64,000 bases of DNA, from assembly GCA_017601225.1 (NCBI GenBank), contig JAFNIX010000004.1, forward strand, positions 4,507 through 68,506, read 5' to 3'. The DNA comes from Candidatus Brockarchaeota archaeon (lineage in GTDB: Archaea > Thermoproteota > EX4484-205 > JAAOZP01). A model generated the notes under the pieces. The model did not search any database, had not been told where the DNA came from, and saw nothing but the letters and a program-made list of their open reading frames with translations. Below are positions 20,001-38,035 of the stretch, piece by piece; within the stretch, counting starts at the first letter, position 1, and the number at the start of each line of letters is the position of its first letter. The position numbers and the translations under genes were made by a program.

Positions 20001-21597
20001 CAATTTTCCCAGTTAAAGTAACGAAGCCGCCTGCGTTCGGCTGTAAAGCGTACCTCGTTGGTCCAATACCCCTGCTTCCGAAGTCAGGACCGTTTATCAG
20101 GCTTGACGCTAAGGCCGCTGCAAACATAACCTGTTTCTTAGTGTTTTCGAACCTTCTCTGAGAGCCGAGACTATTCTCATAGATGTCTGAAGGCGTGGAG
20201 CAGAAGGCTCTGAAAGAATTAGCGGTAGCTACTGTTATTCCAACCCCGCCCGCTAAAACATACGGTTCATGGTCGAAAGCCAGGTTAGTCGGCAAGTATA
20301 CTCTCCATTCTCTTACGCGTAAACCGTCTTCAACATTTATATCGAGGCCCAGATTCTGCAGAATGTTCTTAACCTCAGACTGCGACCCGAATAATCTATC
20401 ACGTAGCCAAGTATACCTTAGGAGAGAGGCCTCGAAGTAATAGTTGTACCCGCAGAAGAATAACCCTAGATCGCTCACGTCGGAAGCCAGGTCGAAGTTT
20501 ACCCATATGCTGATCTTATTGCCTATTTCCTCGAAGTGCTGCTCTACAAACTCTCTGGAGCCCTTTAACCCTCCGTAGTGAGAACCTATAGCGAGAAACC
20601 ATATGGTTCTCTCAGGAGGATTATCCTTAAACCAGGAAGCCAGCTCCATGATCATCGCAATGCCTATAGCCTCATCTGCTCCAGGAGCCACTCCAACTAT
20701 GTATGATTGCGAATCATAGTATGCACTTAAAATCACAATCTCTTCTCTCCTTCCGGGTATTACACCTAGAATATTCCAAGCCGGCTTTTCCTCCCAGGAA
20801 GCATTCAGCATAATTCTTACTTTAACCTCGCCTATTGTCTGAAGAGCAATCAGATTCTCCGCATCTCTTCTTGAAACCACGAGCCTAGGAATATTTAACG
20901 GGACGCCTAGGTAGTTGACTCCCCCTCTGAAAGCTAATCGTGGAGCATCCGGAAGCCTACCGTTTAAAGAACTTTGAACGTTATTGTAGATTTCCGGCTC
21001 AATAAATAGTACGGCTTTAGCGCCAAACATCACTGTGCGAATCCAGTTCCCGCTGTTTTCATAGTCCACAAGCACTATCTTATCATTAAGGTTCTTTCCT
21101 TCAAGCTCCGACAGGGATGCTTTCCCAACGTAGACTAGCCTCCCCTCAATACCCTCGGGAGGAGTCATACCCGGATTTAGACCCATCGGGTACATTGTTA
21201 AAACATTGTCAAGGGTAAACTGGATTGGAGATAATACTTGAACCCTTGACTCATGAACTACTGGGACGAGGACCGTGAAGTTTTCAAAATAACCGTAAGG
21301 ACCTGGTTTAAGACCATTTTTCACGAAGTTTTCATAGATGTATTTCGCTGCAGCTTCATAGCCAGGGTAGCCGGGGGTCCTGCATCTAAGGCTAGACAGA
21401 TACTTAACGTGCTCGCGAATCGCATCTGTGTTTATGATGTTTGCGATCTCGCTATTTTTAAAGGGCTGCAGCCCGTCTGCCTCAACTTGATAGGCAATGT
21501 TTAAAACGATTGTTGAACATAAGAGGAATATAATAGACAGGGGAATAAGTCTTCTCCTCAATACTGTTCGAAGCAGGACTCTTCCCCCTAGAGACAT
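17035..21597 (-). CDS. Module protein C1: signal-anchor + PA/M28-like (transferrin-receptor/GCPII-like) ectodomain + CarboxypepD_reg-like segment + 3 TM + MacB/FtsX-type permease + novel cytoplasmic tail
   Basis: 1520 aa. M28-like blocks: WNILGVIPG..VILSAYYDS..APGADEAIG..GSHYGGLKGSREF..VNFDL. PA-like block: GRLVYVGKA..DKIVLVDYENSG..GAKAVLFIE. FtsX TM1 block: NMRKRRLRTALTLVTITLIV. FtsX domain block: NVYERVREIGIFSSLGLSPLHVAGLFLSETLVY. There is no Walker A motif anywhere in the protein. Confidence 0.7.
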   Translation of the reverse strand: MSLGGRVLLRTVLRRRLIPLSIIFLLCSTIVLNIAYQVEADGLQPFKNSEIANIINTDAIREHVKYLSSLRCRTPGYPGYEAAAKYIYENFVKNGLKPGPYGYFENFTVLVPVVHESRVQVLSPIQFTLDNVLTMYPMGLNPGMTPPEGIEGRLVYVGKASLSELEGKNLNDKIVLVDYENSGNWIRTVMFGAKAVLFIEPEIYNNVQSSLNGRLPDAPRLAFRGGVNYLGVPLNIPRLVVSRRDAENLIALQTIGEVKVRIMLNASWEEKPAWNILGVIPGRREEIVILSAYYDSQSYIVGVAPGADEAIGIAMIMELASWFKDNPPERTIWFLAIGSHYGGLKGSREFVEQHFEEIGNKISIWVNFDLASDVSDLGLFFCGYNYYFEASLLRYTWLRDRLFGSQSEVKNILQNLGLDINVEDGLRVREWRVYLPTNLAFDHEPYVLAGGVGITVATANSFRAFCSTPSDIYENSLGSQRRFENTKKQVMFAAALASSLINGPDFGSRGIGPTRYALQPNAGGFVTLTGKIVTYDYAKGWFEGVPHALVSVRLSYTESGYTPHFYSLCKTDENGVFMVHGLPSETTYTGAQQLGVGVAEVAVPKVMVEAFVFNKNGNVIYAPELWQQRSDVYPISFQVDSGRIGTPDAPRYFPVFPCGSIVLFNLIPPVNMLGSISILDSRGHTPPTSYGYVRDSFIEGEDITMIFAPEDVPIEVIIYSPGIPSPQGVLKSITEETLEGRGFSVKQGETLIILATPLRLVNDFHLLNKYRLHLASSYLAASAPALEFSKNTGNLLSEALRCFSAEAGFNYSRMVYATYAAWQSEINAYTFTRGLIFEIISSTLFFFILLVPFSILLVELVFSPRSGMRRILYACGVFALFTFLLYWFHPGFHLATNIYIMLVGIAILVFVTPIVGILWGRISGFIRAFREEVIGKHFAEISRFGAILIAFSMGVSNMRKRRLRTALTLVTITLIVFSLISLTSIYLISIVRTIPKPGKTYYDGILISEFRYLPSYLEAFLKVEIGDEAVICPRSWIYTSSGYVSVLGGQVPGTKIRVTRITDNLPRTQYVFSALLAVVPEDPIFEQGITLPNCSQLLSSYTAIIPREAADTCGWRIGDTIYVGEANLTIIGIFDSSTLNSLVDLNLHEVTPINWGVQWAGGIQHIPAQLVLIVPYSLAERLGYPPMQIVAKFRNQSRVFEIAQSLSNRLPFVVYASAGGQRANFQQQAWFSLRGIEHLVFPIIIAALAILDAMLANVYERVREIGIFSSLGLSPLHVAGLFLSETLVYSVVAAVLGYVAGLVGTNLLYMFQLMPKDFYPNFSSTIVILTVSISILTTIASSIYPVLKASRLVTPSVERVWKLKTKPQGDVWDIPLPFTSSIGETDGIIMFLVEFFKAFTTAEVGTFRTDNLALSERVEDGAVEKIIIVDTTLPPFDMGISQRAEILIRKDAGETNFKYALRLNRKSGTLYMWQKAGYRFVDSLRKQLLIWRTLPAADKLEAIEKAREMLEKFKEAGNHE

Positions 21598-21657: not shown

Positions 21658-23742
21658 TCAACCTGGAACAGCAGGAGTCCATTCTATCCCTGCTTGTGCA
21701 ACCGGCAGGAATATGTCGGTAACTATTGACACTATGAATGCACCTAGGAATATTCCTATCGCTAGCGGGACGCCTTGTTCCTCATAGAGTTTTGAGCCGC
21801 CTATTCTAAACGTTAGAAACTTCAAAACCCATGCTACGAGAAGATAGCCCCAAAGCCAGTGTGCGGGCTGACATAAGCCTATGACAAGACCCACCGGATT
21901 CAATGGAAACCTGGCGAATGCAACCCTAGCCCAAAGAAGAACTCCGGCGAGGAAGAAGCCCGCAGCCCAGTTTGCCAGCTCAAGACCTAGCAGGTCCTTG
22001 TTCCAGTTAAACCAGGAACAGCCCTGAGCTTGGTTGAAAGCAGCGTTAAAAATGGCTTCTTGACTCCACCATGCAGGACTGACCCACTGGCTGTACAGGG
22101 TGCCACCGTATCCGAAGCCCTTGTCGATCCCAATCATGTATGTAAAGACCAGCCAAAGCGGGAGACATATGAGGACGGCGAGGACCATGGCCACAATGGT
22201 TGAAATCGCCATAGCCCTATTATTGGTTTTAGTTAGAGTCGCCAATTTGAAGGCTTCGAGCTGAGCGCTCTGAGGCGTGCCTGCTCCACCCCAGTACCAA
22301 GTGTAATGCCCAGTCACCACGTAACCCATGTTCCAAGCCGTGTAGGCACCTGGCCCGTATGCGGCTTGAGACGCTGCCGAGGCTTGGGGCCCGACAAGCG
22401 AGTATAGCCCTGCCTGAGACAATAGCGTAGCTAAAACCTCCTGGGACTCCCAAGGTATGTCTCCCTTCGCTATGCTTTCACCCCTGATTCTTGATGTCGC
22501 CACATACTGGAGACACGTATATACTACGATTATGCCGGCCGCCCAGACTGGAATATAGACAACCACCATAAGCACAATGAGCAGCACTGTTGAAATTATG
22601 AAGGCAAGCCACAGAGTTCTATATGAGAAAGGCTCGTTAGACTCATCAAGCACCTTCTTGCCAAACGCGTTCTTAAGCGTAGAAACAATGTATTTCCTCG
22701 CGTAGACAAGAAGCCAGAGGCCTAAGCCAATCATTGCACCCCATCCGATCATCCCACCGGATATGGGAGCTATCGCACATGACGCCATGTTGTGCCACGC
22801 GCCTCCGGAGCTTCCCCAAGGTGCTTGCAGCGTTGCGTACCCAGCCCAAGCGGAAACCGCCGGAATAATATCGGCAAATATAAACCAGGCGACGACTGCA
22901 GTGAATAGAACGTCAAGTGGCGCGAGATACCATAAGCTTAGCTGAGACGGGGATACGCTGAAGAACCAGCTTGAATTCGGCAGCGCGACCTCCAGTGCTT
23001 CGATGTGGTAGGTCTGCCACAGGTTCCATCCTCTTCCGGGTGCAAGAGCATCTATAAGGTTACCAAGCATCAGTAAAAATCCCACCAGCAGACCTATCAG
23101 AATCTTTTTAACGCGGGGTTTCTGGGTTACGCCCATGCCTAGGTTTATCAGCTCATTAGTAATGTTCAAGTATGGGAACGGTAGCTTCTCAATGTCTATC
23201 CACAGTTTCCGAAGTATCATCCCCATCGAAAGCATGAAAACCAATAGAACTATAGTGAAGATCATCCAGAATCCTAACGCCGGAGCCCATGCTGCCCAGG
23301 GAACAGAAGTTCCCCCGGTGAAAGCAGCTAAAGCAGCCTCCATGTCTTTTACTCCGAAGAGCGGGCTCATCTCTAATGCTCCAGGTATTGTGGACACCCA
23401 GTATCCCATCCACCACCATTGTTTTTCCCAGGCCGTGTTGAAAATCGATATTGAAAACGGTACTGCCACAGACCATGCGAAGCCAAGACTTACCGTCACC
23501 ATGGCGAAAACGATGGCGTATTCGTCTGCCCTGAGCCTCAGGGAACTGAGAAAGTAGCCAAGTATTGCCAGCACAAAAAGTACTAGGAATGCTCCCGCGT
23601 TCATGCCCCACAGTGTCAGATTAACGTTTGTCCAGTCTATTGATAGCTGTATCAGCATCATCACTATGGAGATGACTAGGCCGACTATGAATCCTCTAGA
23701 CTTTAAAAATTCGCTGAGGAGGAATTCTTTTTCCTCACTCAT
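21658..23742 (-). CDS. Module protein B1: large polytopic membrane protein, distant relative of A1
   Basis: 694 aa and hydrophobic throughout. It carries the motif LWIDIEKLPFPYLNITNEL. It aligns along its full length with the 660 aa ORF at 59773..61755, for example at LAPLDVLFTAVVAWFIF versus LAPLDILSSIVIWLFIF. Confidence 0.6.
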   Translation of the reverse strand: MSEEKEFLLSEFLKSRGFIVGLVISIVMMLIQLSIDWTNVNLTLWGMNAGAFLVLFVLAILGYFLSSLRLRADEYAIVFAMVTVSLGFAWSVAVPFSISIFNTAWEKQWWWMGYWVSTIPGALEMSPLFGVKDMEAALAAFTGGTSVPWAAWAPALGFWMIFTIVLLVFMLSMGMILRKLWIDIEKLPFPYLNITNELINLGMGVTQKPRVKKILIGLLVGFLLMLGNLIDALAPGRGWNLWQTYHIEALEVALPNSSWFFSVSPSQLSLWYLAPLDVLFTAVVAWFIFADIIPAVSAWAGYATLQAPWGSSGGAWHNMASCAIAPISGGMIGWGAMIGLGLWLLVYARKYIVSTLKNAFGKKVLDESNEPFSYRTLWLAFIISTVLLIVLMVVVYIPVWAAGIIVVYTCLQYVATSRIRGESIAKGDIPWESQEVLATLLSQAGLYSLVGPQASAASQAAYGPGAYTAWNMGYVVTGHYTWYWGGAGTPQSAQLEAFKLATLTKTNNRAMAISTIVAMVLAVLICLPLWLVFTYMIGIDKGFGYGGTLYSQWVSPAWWSQEAIFNAAFNQAQGCSWFNWNKDLLGLELANWAAGFFLAGVLLWARVAFARFPLNPVGLVIGLCQPAHWLWGYLLVAWVLKFLTFRIGGSKLYEEQGVPLAIGIFLGAFIVSIVTDIFLPVAQAGIEWTPAVPG

Positions 23743-26407: not shown

Positions 26408-27385
26408 TTGGATCAGAGAAACATCTTTCTCTCTCTTGCGCAGGGTGAAAACACAGCGGGACTGGTGGCTGCAGCAATAACAAGCCCTCTGACAGAGGAG
26501 CTGCTCAACATGTGTGGCTTAACGTGGTCCTCAGTCCACAAGAATCACGAAAACATGGTTAAAGTCGCGCTGGTAGCTAAATCCGCAATGGGTTTTGAAA
26601 CAGTTCGAGTCCCTTTCGACCAGTGTGTTGAAGCGGAAGCCCTAGGCGTTGAACTCGATTTTGAAGGCTATTATCCGAAGCCGAGGAGATTCTTGGAGGA
26701 AATACTGGAGTTCAACTTTATGGGGAGAGGCAGGACGATGATGGTTTTACAAGCCATTAGGGAGCTTAGAGAGGCTGTGGGCCCAGATTTCCCTATACTG
26801 GGGGGCGTCACAGGCCCTTTCACCCTCCTCAACTATCTTCTCGGCCCTGCTAAAACCATGTTGCTAAGTAGAAGGGACCCGAATATCATTAAGGATTATG
26901 CTGACAAGCTCTCAGCATCCGTAGCTGATTACGCCACGGAAATGGTTTCCGCTGGGGCTGATGCTATAGTGATTGAAGACATGGCTTCGTCTCCAGACGT
27001 GCTTAACCCAAAGATTTTCAAAACGGTTGAAGTAGAGCCTCTTAAACGGTTGACATCTAGGTTGAAAGTCCCCTGCATACTCCACATATGCGGAGACACT
27101 TTAAAGATTTTGAAAGACATACCTGAGACAGGTGTTAAAGTCTTCCATATTGACCCTAAAACCAACCTAAGGGTTGCAAAAGACTTGGTTCGGGGTGTAA
27201 CTTTAGCAGGAGGGGTAAGCACATCTCTACTTTGCGAAGGTGATGAGAAGAGTATTGTTGAAGCCTCGCTCTCCTGCATAAGCCTCGGAATCAGAATAGT
27301 GGCTCCAGCCTGCGCCCTACACCCAAAAACCCCGATGGGGAACGTTAAGACGATGATTAAGGCGGTGAAAAATAGCGCCTGCTAA
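26408..27385 (+). CDS. MtaA/MtbA-like methylcobamide methyltransferase family protein (URO-D superfamily)
   Basis: 325 aa with a TTG start. The block FDQCVEAEALGVELDF is family-typical. LHICGDT (H-x-C) plus the later APACALHP Cys match the MtaA-type zinc ligand pattern. Confidence 0.6.
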   Translation: MDQRNIFLSLAQGENTAGLVAAAITSPLTEELLNMCGLTWSSVHKNHENMVKVALVAKSAMGFETVRVPFDQCVEAEALGVELDFEGYYPKPRRFLEEILEFNFMGRGRTMMVLQAIRELREAVGPDFPILGGVTGPFTLLNYLLGPAKTMLLSRRDPNIIKDYADKLSASVADYATEMVSAGADAIVIEDMASSPDVLNPKIFKTVEVEPLKRLTSRLKVPCILHICGDTLKILKDIPETGVKVFHIDPKTNLRVAKDLVRGVTLAGGVSTSLLCEGDEKSIVEASLSCISLGIRIVAPACALHPKTPMGNVKTMIKAVKNSAC

Positions 27386-27397
27386 GTTTCCAATTTA

Positions 27398-29227
27398 CTA
27401 CCCGTTGCTTCCAAGTAGCTCTTTCAACCCTAGTCTATCAAGAGTCTCCATCTTTGGCTCGCCCTTCTCGTCCCAACCCCTGAGCCTATAGTATTCGGAA
27501 AGCATTGGTTCAAGCTCAACCACCTGTCCTTTCCCAGGCCCCTCCGTCATTGGCTCGTTTAAGAACCTGCGGGGCAGAGAGTCATCCTTCCTTGTTAACC
27601 CCTCTCTCACGTTGAAAAGCCTCGTCAAGTTGTAAACTCTCTCTCCTATCCTCATGAAGTCATACCAGTCTTTATATGGCTGTCCGGTGCACGCGACAAC
27701 CATGCGGTGCAGCTCTTTAAGCGTTATTGCGTAAAATGCGAAGAAGCATAAGCCTGAAGAGTCTATCACAGCCTTCTCGTCCTGCCTATCTATCACTAGC
27801 CTCGCCTTGCCCTCGATAGTGTACGGGTCTACACCACCACCATACCCAAGCAGCTCCTGCCCAGCGGTGTATCCTCTAAGGTGGCATGCTCCCCGGTCGC
27901 TGGTCGCGTAGCCAAGACCCATTCCTTTCGCAGCCCTCGGCTCGTAAGCAGGAATCTCCAACCCTTTCACATGCATCGCGAAGCTCTCGCTGCCTGGAAA
28001 CTTTCTGCTTAGCCTAGCTACACCCTGCTCAACCATTCTCCCACAGTCCTCGCCCTTACACGCCTTCTCAACAAGCCTTATGAAAACCTCGTCGTCTCCC
28101 CACGCAGGCCTTAACCCGTCCAGCTCCCGTATGAACCCTTTCTCGTAGAGCTCCATGAGGAAGCTTATTGTGACACCGGTGCTTATCGTGTCTAAGCCGT
28201 AGGCGTCGCAAAGATAATTAGCCATAGCTATCGTCTTAGCATTCTTGATGCCGCAGTTTGGGCCGAACGCCCATATTGTCTCGTAGTCAGGCCCGTCGAC
28301 CCATTTGTCGTTTAAAACAGCGATTTTCCCACACCGTATAGTGCAGCCGTAGCAACCCTTATCGGCCCTCCAAAGGCCGGATCTCCATTTCTCTCCTGAA
28401 AGCTCGCTTGCACCTTCGAACCTTCCTTTTTGAAAGTTTCTAGTGGGGAGCGCACCCATCTCATTAACAGCCTCTATTATGTTCACCGTCCCATGTCTCG
28501 GCAGGCTTCTAGCAGTAACCTCGTGCAGCCTCAGCATTCTCCTAACCACCCAAGCAGCCCTCTTCAAACCATCAGGATCATAAACCTCTATTGGTCTCTT
28601 ACCACCAACCACTATTGCCTTCAGCCTCTTAGAGCCCATTACGGCGCCGGAGCCACCTCGTCCGGCGGACCTCATATCATCAGTCATTAGACCGGATATT
28701 GGGGCGAGCCTCTCGCCCGCGGGCCCAACGATTAGGAAACTGTGAACCGGAAACTCTTTCCTCAGCTCCACAATGGTTTCGAATGTTGTTCTGCCCCATA
28801 GCTTGCTTGGTCTAAGCTCGGCCCCGTTTTCATCCACCACGAGCACAGAGGGTGCTTCAGCAGATCCCTTAATGATCAGCATGTCGTAACCGGCTCTCTT
28901 AAGCTGAACCCCGAACATTCCGCCGCAGTTTGAATCCAGGAAAACACCCGTCTGGGGGCTTTTTGTAACTATGCTAAACTTTGTGCCGGTTGGAGCAATC
29001 GTGCCCGTTAATGGTCCTGTGGAAACTATGAGCGGGTTTTCAGGCGACAGCGGATCCTCCTTGCCCCGCAGGCTCCGGTAGAGGCAGAGGGCTCCAAGAC
29101 CCTTTCCCCCCAACATTAGGAAAGCCTCCTTCTCGCTCAGACTGTCCACCCTAGCCTTTTTCAGAGAGAGATCAAAGCAGAGAACCCTACCCGTGTAGCC
29201 GCCCTTCATCTCAAACATCCTCCTCAA
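27398..29227 (-). CDS. aor: Aldehyde:ferredoxin oxidoreductase family tungstopterin enzyme
   Basis: 609 aa. It has the N-terminal block GRVLCFDLS...GGKGLGALCLY, the [4Fe-4S] motif CYGCTIRCGK and the pterin-region motif DSSGLCFF. Confidence 0.9.
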   Translation of the reverse strand: MRRMFEMKGGYTGRVLCFDLSLKKARVDSLSEKEAFLMLGGKGLGALCLYRSLRGKEDPLSPENPLIVSTGPLTGTIAPTGTKFSIVTKSPQTGVFLDSNCGGMFGVQLKRAGYDMLIIKGSAEAPSVLVVDENGAELRPSKLWGRTTFETIVELRKEFPVHSFLIVGPAGERLAPISGLMTDDMRSAGRGGSGAVMGSKRLKAIVVGGKRPIEVYDPDGLKRAAWVVRRMLRLHEVTARSLPRHGTVNIIEAVNEMGALPTRNFQKGRFEGASELSGEKWRSGLWRADKGCYGCTIRCGKIAVLNDKWVDGPDYETIWAFGPNCGIKNAKTIAMANYLCDAYGLDTISTGVTISFLMELYEKGFIRELDGLRPAWGDDEVFIRLVEKACKGEDCGRMVEQGVARLSRKFPGSESFAMHVKGLEIPAYEPRAAKGMGLGYATSDRGACHLRGYTAGQELLGYGGGVDPYTIEGKARLVIDRQDEKAVIDSSGLCFFAFYAITLKELHRMVVACTGQPYKDWYDFMRIGERVYNLTRLFNVREGLTRKDDSLPRRFLNEPMTEGPGKGQVVELEPMLSEYYRLRGWDEKGEPKMETLDRLGLKELLGSNG

Positions 29228-30455
29228 CGACTCTTATTGCTGCTGTGCCACACCATTCGGCACACTGGGGAACTCCGCCGCAAAGGTCGCATAAGAGAGG
29301 CCTATTCGCCTCCTCGTTGAACAGGATAACCTTCTGCGGGCATGATTCCACGCAGGCCATGCAGGAGGTGCACAGTTCCTCAACAAGCTCAACGTTACCC
29401 TTTGAACCCTTTTTTAAGGCTCCTGTTGGACAGACAGTTATGCATTTCCCGCATTGAACACATACAACCGGCTTGGCTCCGCTGGGCCATTCTTGAACAA
29501 CCCTGAGCCTAGCGCGCCCAATATCTATTTTGCCATAATGGTAGAGGCTGCAGACAGCAGTACACAGGTTGCAGCCGACGCAGGCAGCAGGCTCAACCCT
29601 TAGAGAGATCCTGCCCTTCTTAGCTGCTCCGACCACTTCCAAGACGCTCCTGCCCTCGTGCACTATACTCCTTACTAGCCTCACCATCTCACCAGGATCC
29701 TGGGCCTGCACTATGTTCCTGCCGTAGACTATTCCAGCACCACCTGCCTGCATAACCTCTTCAACAACCTCCAGCGAGTCCCTTATCGTGACGCCGCTGT
29801 ACCCGCCTAGGGCTAGAACAGGTATGCCGCCGGCAGCCTTAACGGTCCTCTCGAAAGTATACGGGTCCCCGGTGTAAGGGACTTTAAGCGCGTCAGCCCC
29901 AAGCTCAGCAGCCATTTTAACCGAAAGGTTTACAAGGTCGACGTAGTTCGCCTTCGTAACACGCTCACCCATCGGGAGGGGCTCAACTATTAGAGGCATT
30001 CCCCGCTTCTCGCATTCACGCGAAAACATTGATATCGTCTTAATGTTCTTAGCCTCCTCATCCTCGTCGCCGAGACCTATAAACAGGTAGACCACTATTC
30101 CGGAGGCGCCTAGTGCTAAAGCATCATCCACTTTCACAGTGCCCACGTCACGTATGACTCTTGCGGGGAGAGTGTATGTTTTATCTCTGAAAGCGTTTGT
30201 CCAATCAGCTCTAACTAGGAGCGCTGGTGCATCCCTCCCATGGAAGAGGTCGACTAGACTGGATGCTTGCCCAGGGGTCAGAAGAATAGCGTCCGGGCCT
30301 CCCTGAATAACCCGAGTAAGAGTTTCCCGAAGGTTCACAACGCCCCTTATTGGCCCAAGCATAAGCCCATGGTCCGCGGCGACAACCACGGATCTCCCGT
30401 CTTCGCCGAATATTCTTTTTAGCCTAAGCCTCTTTCCGGTCTGCATTCTTAACAC
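29211..30455 (-). CDS. DhnA-type class I aldolase fused to a C-terminal 16-Cys polyferredoxin domain
   Basis: 414 aa. The aldolase part has AADHGLMLGP and ELGADALKVPYTGD (putative Schiff-base Lys191). The C-terminal 130 aa carries CVGCNLCTAVC, CVQCGKCITVCP, CTSCMACVESCP and CDLCGGVPQCAEWC. The gene overlaps the AOR gene by 17 nt. Confidence 0.75.
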   Translation of the reverse strand: MLRMQTGKRLRLKRIFGEDGRSVVVAADHGLMLGPIRGVVNLRETLTRVIQGGPDAILLTPGQASSLVDLFHGRDAPALLVRADWTNAFRDKTYTLPARVIRDVGTVKVDDALALGASGIVVYLFIGLGDEDEEAKNIKTISMFSRECEKRGMPLIVEPLPMGERVTKANYVDLVNLSVKMAAELGADALKVPYTGDPYTFERTVKAAGGIPVLALGGYSGVTIRDSLEVVEEVMQAGGAGIVYGRNIVQAQDPGEMVRLVRSIVHEGRSVLEVVGAAKKGRISLRVEPAACVGCNLCTAVCSLYHYGKIDIGRARLRVVQEWPSGAKPVVCVQCGKCITVCPTGALKKGSKGNVELVEELCTSCMACVESCPQKVILFNEEANRPLLCDLCGGVPQCAEWCGTAAIRVVEEDV

Positions 30456-31222
30456 CCGTGAACCAGAAGCCTGGCTTCCGCAACGGTCTCCTCAACGCTG
30501 CCCGAGGCCAGTCTCTCCCTTAAGAGAAGACCTAAGCATCCGGCTGAGAGAGCCTTACTAAGCTCTGAGATCGGAGTCTCAGGATCGTCAATCGCGACAA
30601 CCGGGGTTTGACCAGACACCTCTACGATGGCCCGCATAGACTTCTCGTCTCCAACATATGGTGCCGCAACAAGGTCGGCACCCGCTTCAACAGCCATCCT
30701 GACAGCAAGCTTTAAACAGTCTAGCCGGTTAGCCTGAGTAACCCGCTCACCTATTGCCATTGTCTCCACAAGGAGTGGAAGCCCGAATCTCCTGCATCCT
30801 GAGACGAGTGTTGAAACAATTCTAATACTTCTAGCCTCTTCATCCTCATCCCCGACGAGAAGATAAGCGGCAACGCCTTCACCACCCAATGTCAAAGCCT
30901 CTCTAGGGTTAACCAGTTTAACATGCTCAAGTTTTTTACGAGTCAGTTTCGAACAGCCTCCCACAGCATTAGTGAAATCACACCTTAGTATAACAGAGGG
31001 TCCTCTTCCTCCGATCAAGCTTTCCAGTCCAGTGACCTGCCCCTTGCTAAGTATGATGGCATCGGGATTAGATTTTAAAACGCTCGTTAAGATGCTTTGC
31101 GTCGCCCACAGGTTTTCAACCTGTCCGCCCATGAAAGTAGAGTCAAGACTGATGATCAGTGTTTTCCCATCTTTGGAGAAAATCCTGCTTAACCTAAGCC
31201 CCTTCCCTATATGGGCGAACAA
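30449..31222 (-). CDS. DhnA-type aldolase-like protein lacking the Schiff-base lysine (probable non-catalytic paralog)
   Basis: 257 aa and alignable with the aldolase part of the downstream fusion. The motif is EAGADLVAAPYVGD where the paralog has GADALKVPYTGD. It has LDSTF where the paralog has ADHGL. The gene overlaps the downstream gene by 7 nt. Confidence 0.6.
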   Translation of the reverse strand: MFAHIGKGLRLSRIFSKDGKTLIISLDSTFMGGQVENLWATQSILTSVLKSNPDAIILSKGQVTGLESLIGGRGPSVILRCDFTNAVGGCSKLTRKKLEHVKLVNPREALTLGGEGVAAYLLVGDEDEEARSIRIVSTLVSGCRRFGLPLLVETMAIGERVTQANRLDCLKLAVRMAVEAGADLVAAPYVGDEKSMRAIVEVSGQTPVVAIDDPETPISELSKALSAGCLGLLLRERLASGSVEETVAEARLLVHGC

Positions 31223-31298
31223 GACGCTACGCCTCCAAAAATCTTTTTACCACACACTCCAGCCAAGCCATGTTCAATCATCCGCCTGTTTTTACTCA

Positions 31299-31877
31299 TC
31301 ACATCCTGCTCAGAGGCTTAGCTATGATCTCTTTAATAATCATGTCGAATATTCTGGAGGAGTTGGCGGGCTGGACAACTATAGCGGTGTCAGCACCCCT
31401 ACCGGTTCCGGCTATGCTCACCACATCCCTATCCACAGGTATTAGGCCAGCGTCCGCAGCCATGGCTACGATCTCGACAGCCACCTTCATGCCCTCGCAG
31501 AAAAGCCTAAGGGTTTGAGCCATTATCTCAGCAGGGTAAGCCGTGTCAAACTTGCTTCTTATCGCCCTCTCAACATTCATGAAGACATGCGTCCCGGTGT
31601 AAACCTTAACCCCGTTTGCCTCCATTATTCTACGATTCTCCTCAGTCAACTCCTGTTGCCCAGGTTCTTTAAAACCCGTGTGATGAGTCACGACAACCAA
31701 GTTAAAGCCTTTAAACACCTGTGAGGCCTTAACCCCGGTTTCACCAGTTGTAGACGCGACGACAATGTTCTTTATGCCCAGCTCCTCAGCCCTCTTCTTC
31801 GCTGAAGCCAGAACAGCCTCAGTATTGCTCCTCCCAGGCGTGCCGAAGTAAACTATGGTTTTCTCAATCACGCTCAT
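31299..31877 (-). CDS. Stand-alone pyruvate kinase C-terminal (alpha/beta) domain-like protein
   Basis: 192 aa. The blocks YFGTPGRSNTEAVL..IVVASTTGETG..VVVTHHTGF..KVAVEIVAMAADAGL..IAGTGRGADTA resemble the small archaeal PK_C-like proteins. The family assignment is recalled from memory. Confidence 0.5.
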   Translation of the reverse strand: MSVIEKTIVYFGTPGRSNTEAVLASAKKRAEELGIKNIVVASTTGETGVKASQVFKGFNLVVVTHHTGFKEPGQQELTEENRRIMEANGVKVYTGTHVFMNVERAIRSKFDTAYPAEIMAQTLRLFCEGMKVAVEIVAMAADAGLIPVDRDVVSIAGTGRGADTAIVVQPANSSRIFDMIIKEIIAKPLSRM

Positions 31878-31974
31878 GGGGACATCGTTTCAAAAAGCGC
31901 CGATAATCTTTTAAGCCTTTTGCCTAGAAAAAGCGTAAATGCAAGCCTAGGCTGAGCCGTTGTCCGATGATGGC

Positions 31975-33006
31975 TCAGCGCCTGCAACACTGCAGCGGGT
32001 AACTCCTCAATTTTAAAAAGGTCTTTACATATTCCTCAGCATTTTCAAGAGGCATGTTAACTATTACACCGTAGTATATGAATCCTCCGCCATGAGCCCC
32101 AGCGTGGAGCTGGCTTGCAACATATTCCTCTATCAGGTTTCTAGGAATCTTCTCCAATTTATAGGTGGAGGGTTGAGGTATTAGAGTCACTTTGCTCCCG
32201 TATTTCTCCTTCACAGAGGCGAGAACCATGTTTTCAGCCTCATCCAAAGGGTTTAAGCCGTCGAACCCCGCGTCAACCAATCTGTCTAGAATGAGGTTCA
32301 GATTACCATGGCTGTGGAGGAAAACGTAGGCCCCCTGGTTATGGTAGATTCTGCAAAGCTCACGGTCAAACGGCTCGAGAATTTCCCTGCATAGTTTTGG
32401 CGACAGGAATGGGCCGTTGCGATCCCCCAGGTCGCCTGAAAGCCAGACGCCGTTGACACCTGTTTCCTCTATTATTTGCCTCGCTATTTCCGTAAGCCTC
32501 TTAACTCCGAAACTGAGAATCCTTTTGGCGAAACATGGGTTCATAACCATGTCTGTAAGAAACTTTTTGAAACCTCTTAAAGAGTATGCCGCGAAGCCGA
32601 AGGGGCTCTCGTGACTTATGAAGGTGAAGCGATCACTGTTTTTCTCAACATTCTCCCCGATTCTCTTGACATGTTCCCTGGATAATTCGAACCTTTGTTC
32701 TTCAAGCCTATCAAGATCCTCCGGTTTTAAGATAGCGGGCTTAACCAACTCCCTGTAACCATAATCCACTTTGTAAGAGACACGATGAATATCTCCGAAA
32801 AAGGATTCTAAAAGCATGTGTTCAGAATCCTGCTCTAAAACCCTTGTCTCCGGAATGCTTCCTACACCCACAAGGTCCTGGGGCATCTCTCTGGATCTGA
32901 AAGCTTCTTGAAGCCGTCTGAGGCCGTCTGCAACAGCCCAGAGGCATGGAACCATGTCGGGCTCCTCGTGGTTAAGTGTAGTTAGAACACGATCAATAGG
33001 CTTCAA
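31975..33006 (-). CDS. Uroporphyrinogen-decarboxylase-like (URO-D superfamily) protein
   Basis: 343 aa with a TTG start. It has the N-terminal block LNHEEPDMVP and the block FLHSHGNLNLILDRLVDAGFDGLNPLD. It is closely similar in pattern to the ORF at 49110..50189. There is no H-x-C zinc motif. Confidence 0.6.
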   Translation of the reverse strand: MKPIDRVLTTLNHEEPDMVPCLWAVADGLRRLQEAFRSREMPQDLVGVGSIPETRVLEQDSEHMLLESFFGDIHRVSYKVDYGYRELVKPAILKPEDLDRLEEQRFELSREHVKRIGENVEKNSDRFTFISHESPFGFAAYSLRGFKKFLTDMVMNPCFAKRILSFGVKRLTEIARQIIEETGVNGVWLSGDLGDRNGPFLSPKLCREILEPFDRELCRIYHNQGAYVFLHSHGNLNLILDRLVDAGFDGLNPLDEAENMVLASVKEKYGSKVTLIPQPSTYKLEKIPRNLIEEYVASQLHAGAHGGGFIYYGVIVNMPLENAEEYVKTFLKLRSYPLQCCRR

Positions 33007-33899: not shown

Positions 33900-34142
33900 T
33901 CACCCGCCACCAAGCGGCGGGAAAATTGCCAGAACATCCCCATCTTTAACCTCAGGATTATCCCTAACTATTTTCTGGTTTAAGACAAATATTGCCTCCC
34001 TATCGAATTCAACATCAGGATGTTTCGAAACTATTTCTCTAATAACCTCCCTAATGGTTGAGCCGGGTGTGAGCTCCAGCTCCTCCTCGTACTTTCCCAC
34101 AGCCTCTCTGTAGGAGGCGAAATACTTAACCAGAATCTTCAT
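33900..34142 (-). CDS. MoaD/ThiS-family small sulfur-carrier protein
   Basis: ORF 33900..34166. The internal ATG gives an 80 aa protein starting MKILVKYFASYRE and ending in FPPLGGG. The C-terminal Gly-Gly is typical of the beta-grasp sulfur carriers. Confidence 0.75.
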   Translation of the reverse strand: MKILVKYFASYREAVGKYEEELELTPGSTIREVIREIVSKHPDVEFDREAIFVLNQKIVRDNPEVKDGDVLAIFPPLGGG

Positions 34143-34242
34143 CCCGCTTCCTTCTAACCCCCTCATGCTTATATGTTTTTACTGGGCGTGGCCTACACTA
34201 TACTTATAAATACTTGCAAAACATGCTTCCCCGACCATTACC

Positions 34243-36018
34243 ATGGCTGGCTGGATGGGCTCCATCGCCGAGGTAGACCTGTCTAGTTCAAAGATAATTT
34301 TTCGCGAATGGAACGAGGAGGAGAAGCTAAGGTTTATCGGTGGAAGAGGAGTAGGAGCTAAAATCATCTATGACAATGTTGGTCCCGAGGTTGACCCTTT
34401 AAGCAAGGATAACGTGCTGGTTTTTGCGGTTGGCCCGCTTACGGCAACAGCTGCGCCGACATCAGGCAGGTTCTCAGTGTCAACAAAATCCCCGTTGACA
34501 GGGACGGTGTTCGACGCGAACTCTGGAGGGTTTTTCGCAACCAAGTTCAAAGCATGCGGTATCGACGTACTCGTTATTCGAGGGGCAGCTCAAAACCCAG
34601 TTATAATATACATGGATGATAAGGACATTCAGGTTCTGGACGGGGAAAAATACTGGGGAATGAGAGTGTTTGAAGCCACGAGCATGTTGACTGAAAAGTT
34701 TGGGAAGGAAGCAAGAGTGGCCTGCATAGGCCCCGCTGGGGAAAACCTTGTGAGGATAGCGGGCATAATGAACGACTACTACAGGTCTGCTGCTAGAGGT
34801 GGGGTGGGTGCAGTAATGGGCTCCAAGAAGCTGAAGGCAATCGTTGCAAAAGGAAGTAAGACAGTTGAAATTGCTGATAAGGAGAATTTTCTCTTTGTAG
34901 TAGGCGAATGCAATAGGGTTTTTGGCCAGAATCCCATCACGAGTAAAGCCCTACCCAGGTTTGGAACGGCGGTTCTCGTAAACCTCATGAACGAGCTCGG
35001 TGTGCTTCCTGCTAAAAACTTTCAAGCAACCTTCCTGCCCGAGGCCAAGAACATTGCCGGCGAGGAAATAACTAGGAGGCTGCTGGTTAAGCCTAAAGCG
35101 TGCTTCGGATGCAGGATCGCGTGCGGCAGGGGAACCCGTTTAGACAGTGTTGAAGGCGAGGGACCAGAGTACGAGACTGTCTACGCACTCGGATCATGCT
35201 GCCTGCTTTGGGATTTGGAGACGATCTGGAGGGCGAACCATTTGTGCAACGACCTGGGGCTGGACACTATTTCAACAGGCGTGACAATAGCCTGCGCGAT
35301 GGAGCTTAGCGAGAAAGGCATGCTGCCTGAGAAGGTAAAATGGGGCGATGGGAATAAGATCGTCGAGCTGATTGAGAAAACAGCTTACAGGAACGGTTTA
35401 GGGAACGACCTTGCAGAGGGCTCGCGTAGGCTAGCCGAGAAATACGGGGATCCAGATGCAGCCATGCAGGTTAAAGGCTTGGAGCTGCCCGCCTACGACC
35501 CGCGGGGGGCTAAGGGACAGGGATTAGCATATGCTACAAGCAATAGGGGAGGCTGCCACCTAAGGTCGTATATGATAGGTCTGGAAATACTCGGGGTTCC
35601 TAAGAGAATAGACAGGTTTTCAACAGTCAACAAAGCCGGCCTAGTAATATATCAGCAGAATCTTTACTCAGCCATGGATACGCTTGTAGCCTGCAGGTTC
35701 ACGGGATACGGGCTTGACGAAGAATACTACTCAAGGATGCTTTCAGCAGCGACCGGTGTAAAGTATACGGCTGAAGACCTCATGCTCGTGGGTGAGAGAA
35801 TATGGAACCTCGAGAGGCTTTTCAACATTAGAGAGGGGTTTAGCAGGAAGGACGATACTCTTCCCAAGAGGCTTTTAAGCGAGCCGTTGACCAGTGGACC
35901 CACCAAGGGGCAGGTTGTTGAGCTTGACCAGATGCTTGAAGAATATTATAGAGCTAGGGGTTGGGATAAAGAGGGCCGTCCAACCAAGAGAACGCTTGAA
36001 AGACTTGGACTAGCCTAG
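34243..36018 (+). CDS. aor: Aldehyde:ferredoxin oxidoreductase family tungstopterin enzyme (second copy)
   Basis: 591 aa. It has the block GSIAEVDLSS..GGRGVGAKIIY, the [4Fe-4S] motif CFGCRIACGR and the C-terminal block VELDQMLEEYYRARGWD. Confidence 0.9.
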   Translation: MAGWMGSIAEVDLSSSKIIFREWNEEEKLRFIGGRGVGAKIIYDNVGPEVDPLSKDNVLVFAVGPLTATAAPTSGRFSVSTKSPLTGTVFDANSGGFFATKFKACGIDVLVIRGAAQNPVIIYMDDKDIQVLDGEKYWGMRVFEATSMLTEKFGKEARVACIGPAGENLVRIAGIMNDYYRSAARGGVGAVMGSKKLKAIVAKGSKTVEIADKENFLFVVGECNRVFGQNPITSKALPRFGTAVLVNLMNELGVLPAKNFQATFLPEAKNIAGEEITRRLLVKPKACFGCRIACGRGTRLDSVEGEGPEYETVYALGSCCLLWDLETIWRANHLCNDLGLDTISTGVTIACAMELSEKGMLPEKVKWGDGNKIVELIEKTAYRNGLGNDLAEGSRRLAEKYGDPDAAMQVKGLELPAYDPRGAKGQGLAYATSNRGGCHLRSYMIGLEILGVPKRIDRFSTVNKAGLVIYQQNLYSAMDTLVACRFTGYGLDEEYYSRMLSAATGVKYTAEDLMLVGERIWNLERLFNIREGFSRKDDTLPKRLLSEPLTSGPTKGQVVELDQMLEEYYRARGWDKEGRPTKRTLERLGLA

Positions 36019-36098: not shown

Positions 36099-36713
36099 TT
36101 GGGTTCAAGCAATGTAAGCGAGGTTTGGAGGGAGATAAGCAAGTATGGTAAGAAGCTTTTCGACAAGGGCTACATGGTTAGCCACAGTGGGAACATAAGC
36201 GTTAGGGTTGGAGACAAGATGTATATTAAGAGGAGGGGCGCGGCTGCCGACGAGATAGGGCCGGAGGACGTTGTTGAAGTAGATCTTTTCGAGGAGGATA
36301 GTTCCATACTGTTAAGCTCCTCGGAAACCATGGTTCACAGGGCAATATACCTTAATACTTCAGCGTTAGCCGTTGTACACGCTCATCCCCCCTACTCCAT
36401 AGTCTGCTCGCTGATCTTCGACGAGATAATTCCGATGGATGCTGAGGGAGACTACGTGCTTAGAAAGATACCTGTGCTAGTTGTTAAAGAGGTGAGCGGC
36501 TCCAAGGAGCTCGAGGAAAAGGTTTCGGAGGCGCTTAAACACTACAAGGGGGTTGTGGTGAGGGGCCACGGAACATTCGCCGCGGCTAAGCTCCTGGAAG
36601 AGGCATACCACGTCACCTGTATGATTGAAGCTTCCTCTCAGATCCGGTATCTTGTGCACACGTCTGGAATACCACCAAAAAGAGATAAAACAGCTGAATT
36701 CACTAGATGGTAA
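36099..36713 (+). CDS. Class II aldolase/adducin-family protein (fuculose-phosphate aldolase / MtnB-like)
   Basis: 204 aa with a TTG start. The motifs SHSGNISVR and AVVHAHPPYS (metal His pattern) are present. Confidence 0.7.
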   Translation: MGSSNVSEVWREISKYGKKLFDKGYMVSHSGNISVRVGDKMYIKRRGAAADEIGPEDVVEVDLFEEDSSILLSSSETMVHRAIYLNTSALAVVHAHPPYSIVCSLIFDEIIPMDAEGDYVLRKIPVLVVKEVSGSKELEEKVSEALKHYKGVVVRGHGTFAAAKLLEEAYHVTCMIEASSQIRYLVHTSGIPPKRDKTAEFTRW

Positions 36714-36754: not shown

Positions 36755-38035
36755 TTATTGTGGGAGAGGTATTGCGGAAGGACCATCAGGAAGAAGAGTT
36801 ATCCTCCCCCTGGGCTTAAGGCTAAGAGCGATTTCTAAACCCTCCTTCAGGCTTTTCGCATGCATCATGTGCATGGATTCAACAGTCTTCGAATCCACAC
36901 CCCTTGAAACAACTACCACGCGAAACCTCTCTAAGACTTTCGCTAACACTTGAGCCTCCCATTGCGCCTCCCTCCATATTTCTCCAGCCCTAAGCCTAGT
37001 TAGGAACTCGCTTGGACTGCTTGAGGAGGCAAGCATCTCATAGAACCCCTGGTGCCCAACACCGTCGACGCATTCGCCACATGCCACTATTACGCCGCCC
37101 TCCTTGGCTATTAGGGCGCCGTTTGAAATCCCTTTAACAAGCTGGTAGAGGTTTCTGTCCAGAGGATAGCCACCGTTTGAAGTTATTACTATGTCTCCTG
37201 GAACCGGTTTTACACCACAGCATTTTAATGTGAAAACACGTCCGCATCTATGAGCCTCAACAGGGTCGCCTGCGAATGTTGAAATAATCTGCTTCCTCCC
37301 GTCTAACACGACGTTCAGAATGAAGCGAAGTTTCGCCAGACGCGCTGCCTCCAGCATCTCCCCGTATATCGGGTTTCCCTCTGCAACCCCGCATCTCGCG
37401 TTTGGATGATCAATATTTCTAGGAGAGTGATTGCCCATTATTGTTTCAACTCCTGAAACACCGGGTAGAATGCTCTTCGGCCCGCCGGTGAAACCTGCGA
37501 AGAAGTGGCCCTCAATATATCCTTCAGCAACCACCAGCTCAGCCTCTCTTAAAAGAGTGTTTACGTAAAGCTCGTTGCCGGTTGATAACGATCCAAGGTT
37601 AGCCAGCGAGTCAATGTTTTTAGCTGAGTGAATAACAACTTCCTCTAAATAGTCCAGCGCCTGACCGAACTTCTCTTTCAACTCGCTCCTACTTGGAGAC
37701 CATTCGTGCAGCCCGGTAGCCACTAACAGCCTTATGGAAGACTGTGGAGATGCCTTTTTCATTCTCGCAACAAGCCTAGGAAGAGTGGTTTTGCTTGGGA
37801 CAGGCCTAGTGTTATCGCTGGTAATAATCAGAATCCTGCCTGCCTTCTCAGCGAGCTCATCAAGGCTTTTAGACCCTATTGGCTTCGATAAAGCGTTTTC
37901 AACACTAAAATCAGGGTTAGCAGGAATGGGCCAAGATGGCTCGAGATGAGCCTGAATTCTAGAATCCTCGACCTCACACTCTTCAAAGCTTCTGCCGAAA
38001 GGTATCCTAACCAGCATGAAACCTAGTTGTTTCAA
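36755..38035 (-). CDS. LarA-like nickel-pincer-dependent 2-hydroxyacid racemase/epimerase family protein
   Basis: 426 aa. The motifs ITSDNTRPVP, HFFAGFTGGPKSILPG and GNHS are typical of the LarA/DUF2088 family. Confidence 0.75.
   Translation of the reverse strand: MKQLGFMLVRIPFGRSFEECEVEDSRIQAHLEPSWPIPANPDFSVENALSKPIGSKSLDELAEKAGRILIITSDNTRPVPSKTTLPRLVARMKKASPQSSIRLLVATGLHEWSPSRSELKEKFGQALDYLEEVVIHSAKNIDSLANLGSLSTGNELYVNTLLREAELVVAEGYIEGHFFAGFTGGPKSILPGVSGVETIMGNHSPRNIDHPNARCGVAEGNPIYGEMLEAARLAKLRFILNVVLDGRKQIISTFAGDPVEAHRCGRVFTLKCCGVKPVPGDIVITSNGGYPLDRNLYQLVKGISNGALIAKEGGVIVACGECVDGVGHQGFYEMLASSSSPSEFLTRLRAGEIWREAQWEAQVLAKVLERFRVVVVSRGVDSKTVESMHMMHAKSLKEGLEIALSLKPRGRITLLPDGPSAIPLPQ

Follow-up and report, generated by a model that had tools for sequence, protein, structure and literature searches.

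This study concerns a three-gene cassette on a 64,000-nucleotide stretch of DNA (hereafter the window) from a Candidatus Brockarchaeota archaeon, i.e., positions 4,507 to 68,506 of contig JAFNIX010000004.1 in GenBank assembly GCA_017601225.1, in which a gene fusing an aldolase to a polyferredoxin lies beside a gene of the aldehyde oxidoreductase (AOR) family. Three adjoining open reading frames (ORFs), all on the minus strand, span 27398-31222 of the window. The first in the direction of transcription (30449-31222) encodes a DeoC-family, DhnA-like TIM-barrel paralog of 257 amino acids (aa), referred to here as the predicted pseudo-aldolase, and begins at a TTG, with a GGAGG site lying 9 nt 5' of it. 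It is followed by the aldolase-polyferredoxin fusion gene (29211-30446) and by the gene for the AOR, or WorL, catalytic subunit (27398-29209).

The maximal ORF of the fusion, 29211-30455, has 414 codons and begins at GTG 30455. The start is most likely ATG 30446 (MQTGK...), because the resulting 411 aa is the length of the closest homologues; this ATG sits 2 nt past the TAA of the paralog gene. Fusion residues are numbered below in the 411-aa form, so that Lys191 of the 414-codon ORF becomes Lys188. For the AOR gene, whose maximal ORF (27398-29227) has 609 codons, the most likely start is ATG 29209, giving 603 aa, since a GAGGAGG Shine-Dalgarno-like site, read directly from the sequence at 29219-29225 on the minus strand, lies within the last fusion codons and 9 nt 5' of that ATG. 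The junction between fusion and AOR therefore reads TGA-G-ATG. The 17-nt overlap of these two genes described in the initial annotation arises only with the upstream TTG as the AOR start and is probably an artefact of ORF calling, and the three genes would be tightly coupled whichever AOR start is used.

Domains of the fusion and of the AOR

The N-terminal part of the fusion (residues 1-275, encoded at 29622-30446, minus strand) is a class I (Schiff-base) DhnA-type aldolase domain, with a DeoC/LacD match (PF01791) at residues 23-250 of the 414-codon ORF (Pfam E 1e-32). An AlphaFold2 model of the fusion (pLDDT 92, pTM 0.84) superposes through its N-terminal 275 residues on the M. jannaschii ADH synthase MJ0400 (2qjg; Foldseek TM 0.89) and on 1ojx (TM 0.88). 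The structures that superpose on this domain include the fructose-bisphosphate (FBP) aldolase of T. tenax (TtFBPA) and LsrF, and TM values across the DhnA relatives range from 0.87 to 0.91. In the Foldseek search with this model, no PDB entry covered both fusion domains.

The C-terminal part (residues ~282-411, encoded at 29214-29603, minus strand) is a polyferredoxin domain of the WorS/AorA type, with Fer4 families at residues 285-412 of the 414-codon ORF. Its 16 Cys, of which the first codon lies at 29580-29582 and the last at 29250-29252, fall into four motifs, three CxxCxxCxxxC and one CxxCx5CxxxC, and are predicted to carry four [4Fe-4S] clusters; among 86 homologues, 15 of the 16 are invariant and the remaining one is at least 90% conserved. 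The best solved matches are the beta subunit of Pyrococcus furiosus WOR5 (6x1o_B/6x6u_B, E 1e-20), AorA (8c0z_C, E 1e-20) and the Fe-S partner 9mqx_E, with BamC next. Residues 281-411 align end to end with 6x1o_B (6-128) and 8c0z_C (38-171) with every Cys motif matched, and an unusual CDLCGGxPxC-x3-C motif is common to the fusion domain, WOR5 beta and AorA. This agreement bears out the earlier proposal that the added domain is the polyferredoxin partner of an AOR. In the tungsten-enzyme reviews of 2025 and 2026, WorS and AorA are described as polyferredoxins with four clusters that attach to the catalytic subunit and pass electrons on (PMC12096430, PMC13328260).

The third gene encodes AFOR_N and AFOR_C domains and matches P. 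furiosus AOR (PfAOR; 1aor, E 1.6e-149) and the AorB-type catalytic subunit (8c0z, E 2e-134); it is nearer to PfAOR than to WOR5 (502 vs 220 bits). Its four [4Fe-4S] Cys ligands are kept, as CxxCxxxC at 292-299 and a fourth Cys at 494 in the numbering of the 609-codon ORF. At the positions of Glu332 and His383, which we take to be the Fe-bridging residues of the PfAOR homodimer, the cassette AOR has Met and Ile, which, if this assignment is correct, would fit an assembly of different subunits rather than a homodimer of the PfAOR kind. The equivalents of the second-shell residues T243, E313, Y427 and H448 (PMC12096430) are conserved, and the gene appears to encode a canonical AOR sensu stricto with predicted tungstopterin-binding domains. 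By gene content the cassette would be placed as a class II tungsten oxidoreductase (WOR), i.e., WorL and WorS without WorN, WorABC, a Tat signal or a membrane anchor, in a scheme that has no place for an aldolase-fused WorS or a pseudo-aldolase (PMC13328260).

Recurrence and gene order of the cassette

In a protein search, full-length homologues with both DeoC and Fer4, at 40-92% identity, made up more than 100 clusters. Furthermore, a scan of GTDB with one genome per species confirmed 150 relatives, the best 80 loci of which were examined in detail. The search for the same fusion in other genomes that had been recommended thus showed it to be recurrent to a degree well outside chance, and 79 of the 80 examined loci carry it at full length, the remaining one being cut by a contig end. 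The archaeal hosts among these loci are Thermoproteota (Bathyarchaeia, Nitrososphaeria-labelled and Thermoprotei bins), Brockarchaeota, Hadarchaeota, a "Thermococci" bin and Asgard archaea; the bacterial hosts are Planctomycetota, KSB1, Ignavibacteriota, Bacteroidota, Aminicenantes, Zhuqueibacterota and many Anaerolineae. Several hot-spring metagenome studies contain the window sequence itself, in at least 15 runs altogether. Over 27000-32000, contigs of two independent hot-spring runs (X1, X2) differ from it by substitutions only, with 0 indels, and one 9.7-kb metagenome contig crosses the domain junction and both gene junctions.

The order pseudo-aldolase, aldolase-polyferredoxin, AOR was seen in seven representative contigs and then across the 80 GTDB loci. 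That the fusion adjoins an AOR-family gene, as first described for the window, holds throughout, the AOR gene lying directly 3' of the fusion in all 75 loci that extend far enough. The pseudo-aldolase gene is directly 5' of the fusion in 72 of 74 loci, and two Asgard loci (L028, Promethearchaeota; L037, Sigynarchaeum) have the order fusion, AOR, pseudo-aldolase. A Lokiarchaeal locus that seemed to be without the paralog was rejected as such, since tblastn places the paralog 3' of the AOR, where it is cut by the contig end. In L028 and L004, a GH39-like protein of 979 aa is encoded directly upstream. Pairwise distances of the three proteins correlate with r = 0.93-0.95 (61 loci), values that are not independent of shared phylogeny, and we take this co-variation to show co-inheritance of the three proteins.

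Active-site residues of the two barrels

In the fused barrel, K188 (codon 29883-29885) aligns with the Schiff-base Lys of strand beta6, i.e., K177 of TtFBPA and K184 of MJ0400, and this Lys is retained in 118 of 119 homologues and then in all 80 fusions. The same 80 of 80 retain D25 and H26 of the DHG motif (D25-H26-G27, codons 30366-30374), R79, D81, R87, E155 (codon 29982-29984) and the phosphate-binding motifs of the fold, G214-G215 and G242-R243, which are invariant. Tyr120, Tyr191 and Glu155 are invariant or nearly so among the 119 and then the 80 homologues, and R79, D81 and R87 belong to a family-specific loop, R79-x-D81-W-x-N-x-x-R87, i.e., RxDW(T/S)NxxR. The 414-codon ORF, the DHG and GADALKVPYTGD motifs and the four Cys motifs were all found as initially described.

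The neighbouring paralog differs at these positions. Ala186 (codon 30665-30667) occupies the Schiff-base Lys site of the 257 aa protein, and none of 73 paralogs has Lys there, the residue being Ala, Ile, Val or Thr. The window paralog is also without DHG and the GG and GR phosphate motifs; in related paralogs His26 is lost, Asp25 is mostly lost and both phosphate motifs are lost. The fold-defining segments and the RxDWTNxxR loop are retained. Mean pairwise identity is 35% for the paralog, 52% for the fusion and 55% for the AOR, so that the paralog evolves fastest. The strongest case for a catalytic fused barrel and a structural paralog lies in the retention of the catalytic set in 80 of 80 fusions and its loss in the paralogs. 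The 257 aa protein is thus, by prediction, a conserved, catalytically dead subunit of the module.

A candidate coupled reaction and its alternatives

We favour, with modest confidence, the reading that the three genes, presumably transcribed together, encode one cytoplasmic complex which couples the cleavage of a ketose phosphate to the oxidation of the released hydroxyaldehyde by the AOR. The initial annotation had proposed a linked module of this kind, and those of its elements that lend themselves to in silico analysis were all supported. The complex would consist of the AOR/WorL subunit, the four-cluster polyferredoxin fused to an active Schiff-base aldolase, and the dead aldolase paralog as a probable scaffold and partner of the active barrel. 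A kinase of the FGGY or PfkB type, encoded nearby in many loci, would supply the phosphorylated ketose, which K188 would bind, with Glu155 serving as acid/base in place of the usual Tyr. Cleavage would yield a phosphorylated ketone fragment, most likely dihydroxyacetone phosphate (DHAP), and a free aldehyde, most likely a 2-hydroxyaldehyde, e.g., lactaldehyde or glycolaldehyde. The tethered AOR would then oxidise this aldehyde to the (2-hydroxy)acid, with ferredoxin receiving the two electrons from the tungstopterin along a five-cluster chain, made up of the AOR [4Fe-4S] cluster and the four of the fused domain. The strongly exergonic oxidation of the aldehyde would pull the unfavourable aldol cleavage, and tethering would hold the reactive aldehyde off the free cytoplasmic pool. 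We infer that the proteins associate physically and that the aldehyde is channelled, and likewise the reaction direction, the substrate and ferredoxin as the acceptor.

A more specific version of this proposal is offered tentatively, as a possibility that we consider less probable than the general reading. Here the cassette would represent a sixth architectural class of tungsten oxidoreductase, a large hetero-oligomer with an active/dead aldolase core and polyferredoxin-AOR arms, channelling substrate in a so far unrecognised, ferredoxin-linked branch of sugar catabolism that leads from a ketose-1-phosphate to DHAP and a hydroxyaldehyde, and from the latter to a hydroxyacid. DhnA aldolases form large oligomers (decamers). 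Candidate routes would be from xylulose-1-phosphate through glycolaldehyde to glycolate, and from a 6-deoxyketose-1-phosphate through lactaldehyde to lactate.

The genes around the cassette were surveyed as the two nearest on each side. FGGY sugar kinases occur near it in 14 loci and LarA-type nickel hydroxyacid racemases in 11, one tested example of the latter scoring above the NCBIfam LarA cutoff (503 > 460). Further neighbours are PfkB kinases, D-lyxose and L-fucose isomerase-like proteins, xylose-isomerase-like TIM barrels, DUF4432, class II aldolases, creatininase-like proteins and UPF0261. A TauE/SafE exporter directly follows the AOR in 12 of 132 downstream neighbours (loci L064, L069, L071, L073, L083, L087 and L088 among them); the inspected cases are Anaerolineae, and UPF0261 is often next. 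These exporters hint at the export of an anionic, possibly sulfonated, acid product. Neighbours seen in one locus each are MoaD/WorX in L005, a lactate permease in L001 and, in L003, a GlcD-like FAD oxidase whose gene overlaps that of the paralog.

An exhaustive HMMER search also found many stand-alone aldolases of 260-285 aa that share the signature of the fused domain (DHG, RxDW(T/S)NxxR, E-P-[LIMV]-P, K, GG, GR). The genomic context could be read for three of them. In one, the gene lies with a LacI regulator, an ABC transporter, a PfkB kinase, an alpha-xylosidase-like GH31 and a fucose-isomerase-like protein; another groups the aldolase with a GH31/melibiase, an FGGY kinase and an isomerase-like protein; and in the third it is accompanied by an ABC transporter, an FGGY kinase, a Zn-ADH and a cupin, with a LarA-like protein encoded farther on. 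The stand-alone members are thus found in sugar-utilisation operons, and the subfamily therefore appears to hold the position of a catabolic ketose-phosphate aldolase. A role in sulfoglycolysis, suggested by the TauE exporters and by the GH31/PfkB/isomerase operon around one stand-alone relative, was considered and not adopted: the GH31 is alpha-xylosidase-like (586 bits vs 606) and the isomerase is only a remote match to sulfoquinovose isomerase (85 vs 700).

Several observations weigh against the coupled reading. The catalytic Tyr of the fold (Y146 in TtFBPA, Y153 in MJ0400) is present in none of the 119 or 80 members; the aligned residue, L157 in the window (codon 29976-29978), is always L, I, M or V. 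LsrF, a thiolase rather than an aldolase, is likewise without a Tyr aligned there, and the chemistry could differ. All NCBIfam equivalog scores (FBP aldolase, ADH synthase, LsrF) fall below their cutoffs, e.g., 161 bits vs 430 for the class I FBP aldolase model NF040816, 166 vs 299 for TIGR01949 and 200 vs 241 for the subfamily model NF005556, and assign no substrate. One locus, on the Anaerolineales bin12 chromosome (L084), has the fusion and the AOR with no paralog within 5 kb, the only such locus with room for one. All 80 examined loci come from metagenome-assembled genomes (MAGs). The flanking genes vary between lineages and define no single pathway; the trio therefore seems to behave as a self-contained, horizontally mobile module. 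As for expression, the metatranscriptome assembly of one sediment run includes contigs that agree at 99% identity or more with stretches of the AOR gene, with the junction of paralog and fusion (30275-30693) and with the PK_C-like gene upstream, described below. This is consistent with transcription in situ, with the proviso that assembled contigs can contain DNA, and no reads for the locus were seen in the sampled ~3% of the raw-read hot-spring metatranscriptome X21.

With respect to the missing Tyr, the invariant Glu155 lies two residues before the Tyr position on the same strand and should therefore point the same way. We infer that this Glu may replace the Tyr as acid/base. A Glu in that role is normal in other class I aldolases, such as LacD and muscle aldolase. 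The initial description of the domain as a complete DhnA-type aldolase stands for the fold, the DHG motif, the Schiff-base Lys and the phosphate motifs; the canonical Tyr is absent, a feature that had been missed along with the dead status of the 257 aa paralog, so that the domain is not fully canonical. It appears to belong to a distinct, unnamed DhnA subfamily.

The most serious rival is a glycolytic metabolon in which the fused barrel would be an FBP aldolase yielding DHAP and glyceraldehyde 3-phosphate (GAP), and the AOR a GAP:ferredoxin oxidoreductase, similar to the class II WOR CbGOR, that forms 3-phosphoglycerate. CbGOR is a WorL and WorS enzyme that oxidises GAP (PMC13328260, PMC12096430). 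The nearest characterised aldolases are archaeal class Ia FBP aldolases and the FBP-binding MJ0400, R79 and R87, both invariant, are possible ligands of a second anionic group, and one locus (L006) has phosphofructokinase and glycogen genes near the cassette. However, the fused domain reaches the low FBP aldolase score given above, the AOR scores 52 bits against a cutoff of 1300 on the archaeal GAPOR model and is nearest to the broad-spectrum AOR sensu stricto, and the residue aligned to Arg148 of TtFBPA, presumably its 6-phosphate ligand, is variable. The neighbouring genes, moreover, encode FGGY kinases, isomerases and LarA instead of enzymes of glycolysis, and we regard the metabolon as unlikely.

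The cassette might also run in reverse, as an anabolic system in which reduced ferredoxin drives the reduction of an acid by the AOR and the aldolase traps the resulting aldehyde with DHAP. AORs do reduce acids with low-potential donors (PMC9295118, PMC12096430), aldolases are reversible, and tethering would be especially useful for a scarce aldehyde. The surrounding genes, for sugar transporters, glycosidases, kinases and isomerases, are nevertheless those of catabolism, LarA and TauE would suit an acid as the product, and no phosphatase or biosynthetic genes are conserved beside the cassette, all of which makes this direction quite improbable.

Much the same low probability attaches to the view that the Lys barrel carries out Schiff-base chemistry other than that of an aldolase, as an LsrF-like thiolase or an ADH-synthase-like transaldolase, with the AOR taking some other intermediate. 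The Tyr is absent here as it is in LsrF, which is CoA-dependent, and the best NCBIfam matches of the domain are the ADH synthase subfamily and LsrF. Set against this, those scores are all below cutoff, a Glu acid/base has precedents among class I aldolases, and the stand-alone members adjoin a kinase and an isomerase, as expected of a ketose-phosphate aldolase. The cassette is also present in bacteria, which typically use the 3-deoxy-D-arabino-heptulosonate 7-phosphate (DAHP) pathway rather than ADH synthase.

A reading without metabolic coupling, in which both barrels are only a structural, oligomerising or regulatory module for an ordinary class II AOR, is harder still to credit and seems very unlikely. 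The decamers formed by DhnA proteins and the clearly non-catalytic paralog would suit it. AorAB, in addition, builds filaments by means of an accessory structure (PMC12096430). Yet the Lys, the DHG motif, Glu155 and both phosphate motifs are invariant in 80 of 80 fusions and lost in the adjoining paralog, and a pure scaffold is therefore not expected.

Finally, a sequencing or assembly frameshift joining two separate genes, which the initial annotation had named as what would overturn the fusion, has a negligible probability given more than 100 clusters, full-length fusions in 79 of 80 loci and two independent runs free of indels over the junction, even though one locus (L089) carries the two domains as separate overlapping ORFs. 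That locus, a 3-kb Logan contig, has the paralog, a 275 aa aldolase, a 137 aa polyferredoxin overlapping the aldolase by 35 nt and an AOR fragment; with its truncated AOR it looks degraded or error-laden, and its split ORFs reflect either decay of the copy or a frameshift in sequencing.

Other genes of the window lie close to the cassette. At a distance of 4 kb there is an unfused set comprising a MoaD/WorX-like gene (33900-34166, minus strand), a second AOR (34243-36018, plus strand; 591 aa, 44% identical to the cassette AOR), a FucA-like class II aldolase (36099-36713, plus strand; 232 bits on PRK08660, cutoff 203) and a convergent LarA-like hydroxyacid racemase (36755-38035, minus strand; 456.7 bits, cutoff 460). 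This set looks like a second version of the logic of the cassette. Immediately upstream of the cassette, a stand-alone PK_C-like protein of 192 aa (31299-31877, minus strand) matches the structural-genomics proteins MTH1675 (1t57, E 6e-56) and AF0103 (1vp8), which we take to be FMN binders, and it could accordingly be a redox partner. As the electron acceptor of the module it was rejected, since it accompanies the cassette only in the clade of the window (4 of 129 neighbours). In a metatranscriptome contig of run X16 this gene contains a joint that "goes back 509" (31369-31877), probably an assembly quirk.

Two URO-D/MtaA-like proteins flank the cassette (26408-27385, plus strand; 31975-33006, minus strand), and the same pair occurs in the closest relatives (L009-L013); the 325 aa protein of this type scores 239 against a cutoff of 244 for a methylcobalamin:coenzyme M methyltransferase subfamily. 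A DUF6785/DUF6784 protein of ~680-694 aa is encoded a few genes from the cassette (21658-23742, minus strand) and directly after the AOR in Bathyarchaeota B24 contigs (L001, 9227-11260; L002, 5041-7065); it might be a transporter linked to the module. An ORF of 1520 aa (17035-21597, minus strand) combines Peptidase_M28 with a C-terminal FtsX-like permease domain in an unusual large membrane protein.

The cassette can be set beside several known systems. Like WOR5/ASOR alpha-beta (6x1o, 6x6u) and the class II WORs, it pairs an AOR-family subunit with a polyferredoxin of ~130 residues and four [4Fe-4S] clusters, has no NAD or bifurcating module and has ferredoxin as its presumed acceptor. Unlike in those enzymes, WorS is here the C-terminal domain of a 411 aa protein, its second Cys motif is CxxCxxC rather than the CxxCx4C of WOR5 beta, and a pseudo-aldolase gene is obligatory. 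AorABC of Aromatoleum aromaticum (8c0z) and the class III and IV WORs are likewise multi-subunit AORs with an extended cluster chain, but the cassette is without an FAD/NAD subunit (AorC/WorN) or a HydABC-like module, and the aldolase/pseudo-aldolase pair takes the place of the third component. With T. tenax FBP aldolase, MJ0400 and E. coli LsrF the fusion shares the TIM barrel, the Schiff-base Lys, DHG and the GG and GR motifs; it differs from the DhnA aldolases in having L, I, M or V at the Tyr position, an invariant Glu, the RxDW(T/S)NxxR loop and an attached Fe-S domain. A functional analogy is offered by DmpFG and BphI-BphJ, in which an aldolase and an aldehyde-oxidising enzyme pass a reactive aldehyde between their active sites. 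These pairs, however, combine a class II metal-dependent pyruvate aldolase with an NAD+/CoA-dependent acylating dehydrogenase, and have no tungsten, Fe-S chain, fusion or pseudo-enzyme.

To date, WorL-WorS heterodimers are established (PMC12096430, PMC13328260), and a 2026 survey sorted more than 4,000 WORs into five subunit classes, with only 5 of 92 WOR/AOR clades having a defined physiological role (PMC13328260). A full-text literature search returned no description of an aldolase-polyferredoxin-AOR cassette, and the word "aldolase" is absent from PMC12096430, PMC13328260 and the Wolframiiraptor paper (PMC9246946) with its supplements. The component families and the WorL-WorS pairing are thus already known, and the aldolase-WorS fusion with its obligatory pseudo-aldolase is absent from both recent surveys.

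Databases label the fusion "class I fructose-bisphosphate aldolase", "4Fe-4S binding protein" or "hypothetical", and annotation under the first two of these labels can mislead glycolysis and gluconeogenesis calls in reconstructions from MAGs. The cassette is a clear example of a conserved pseudo-enzyme subunit, and would be a natural design for cell-free cascades without free aldehydes. If the proposed reaction is true, a C-C lyase would here be part of a tungsten enzyme complex for the first time. The main value of the finding is as a substrate lead for an uncharacterised AOR clade: the usual gap for AORs is the natural aldehyde, and here the presumed aldehyde-forming enzyme is joined to the electron-transfer subunit of the AOR, so that knowing what the fused aldolase cleaves would reveal the natural AOR substrate in a clade that extends across roughly a dozen phyla of archaea and bacteria.

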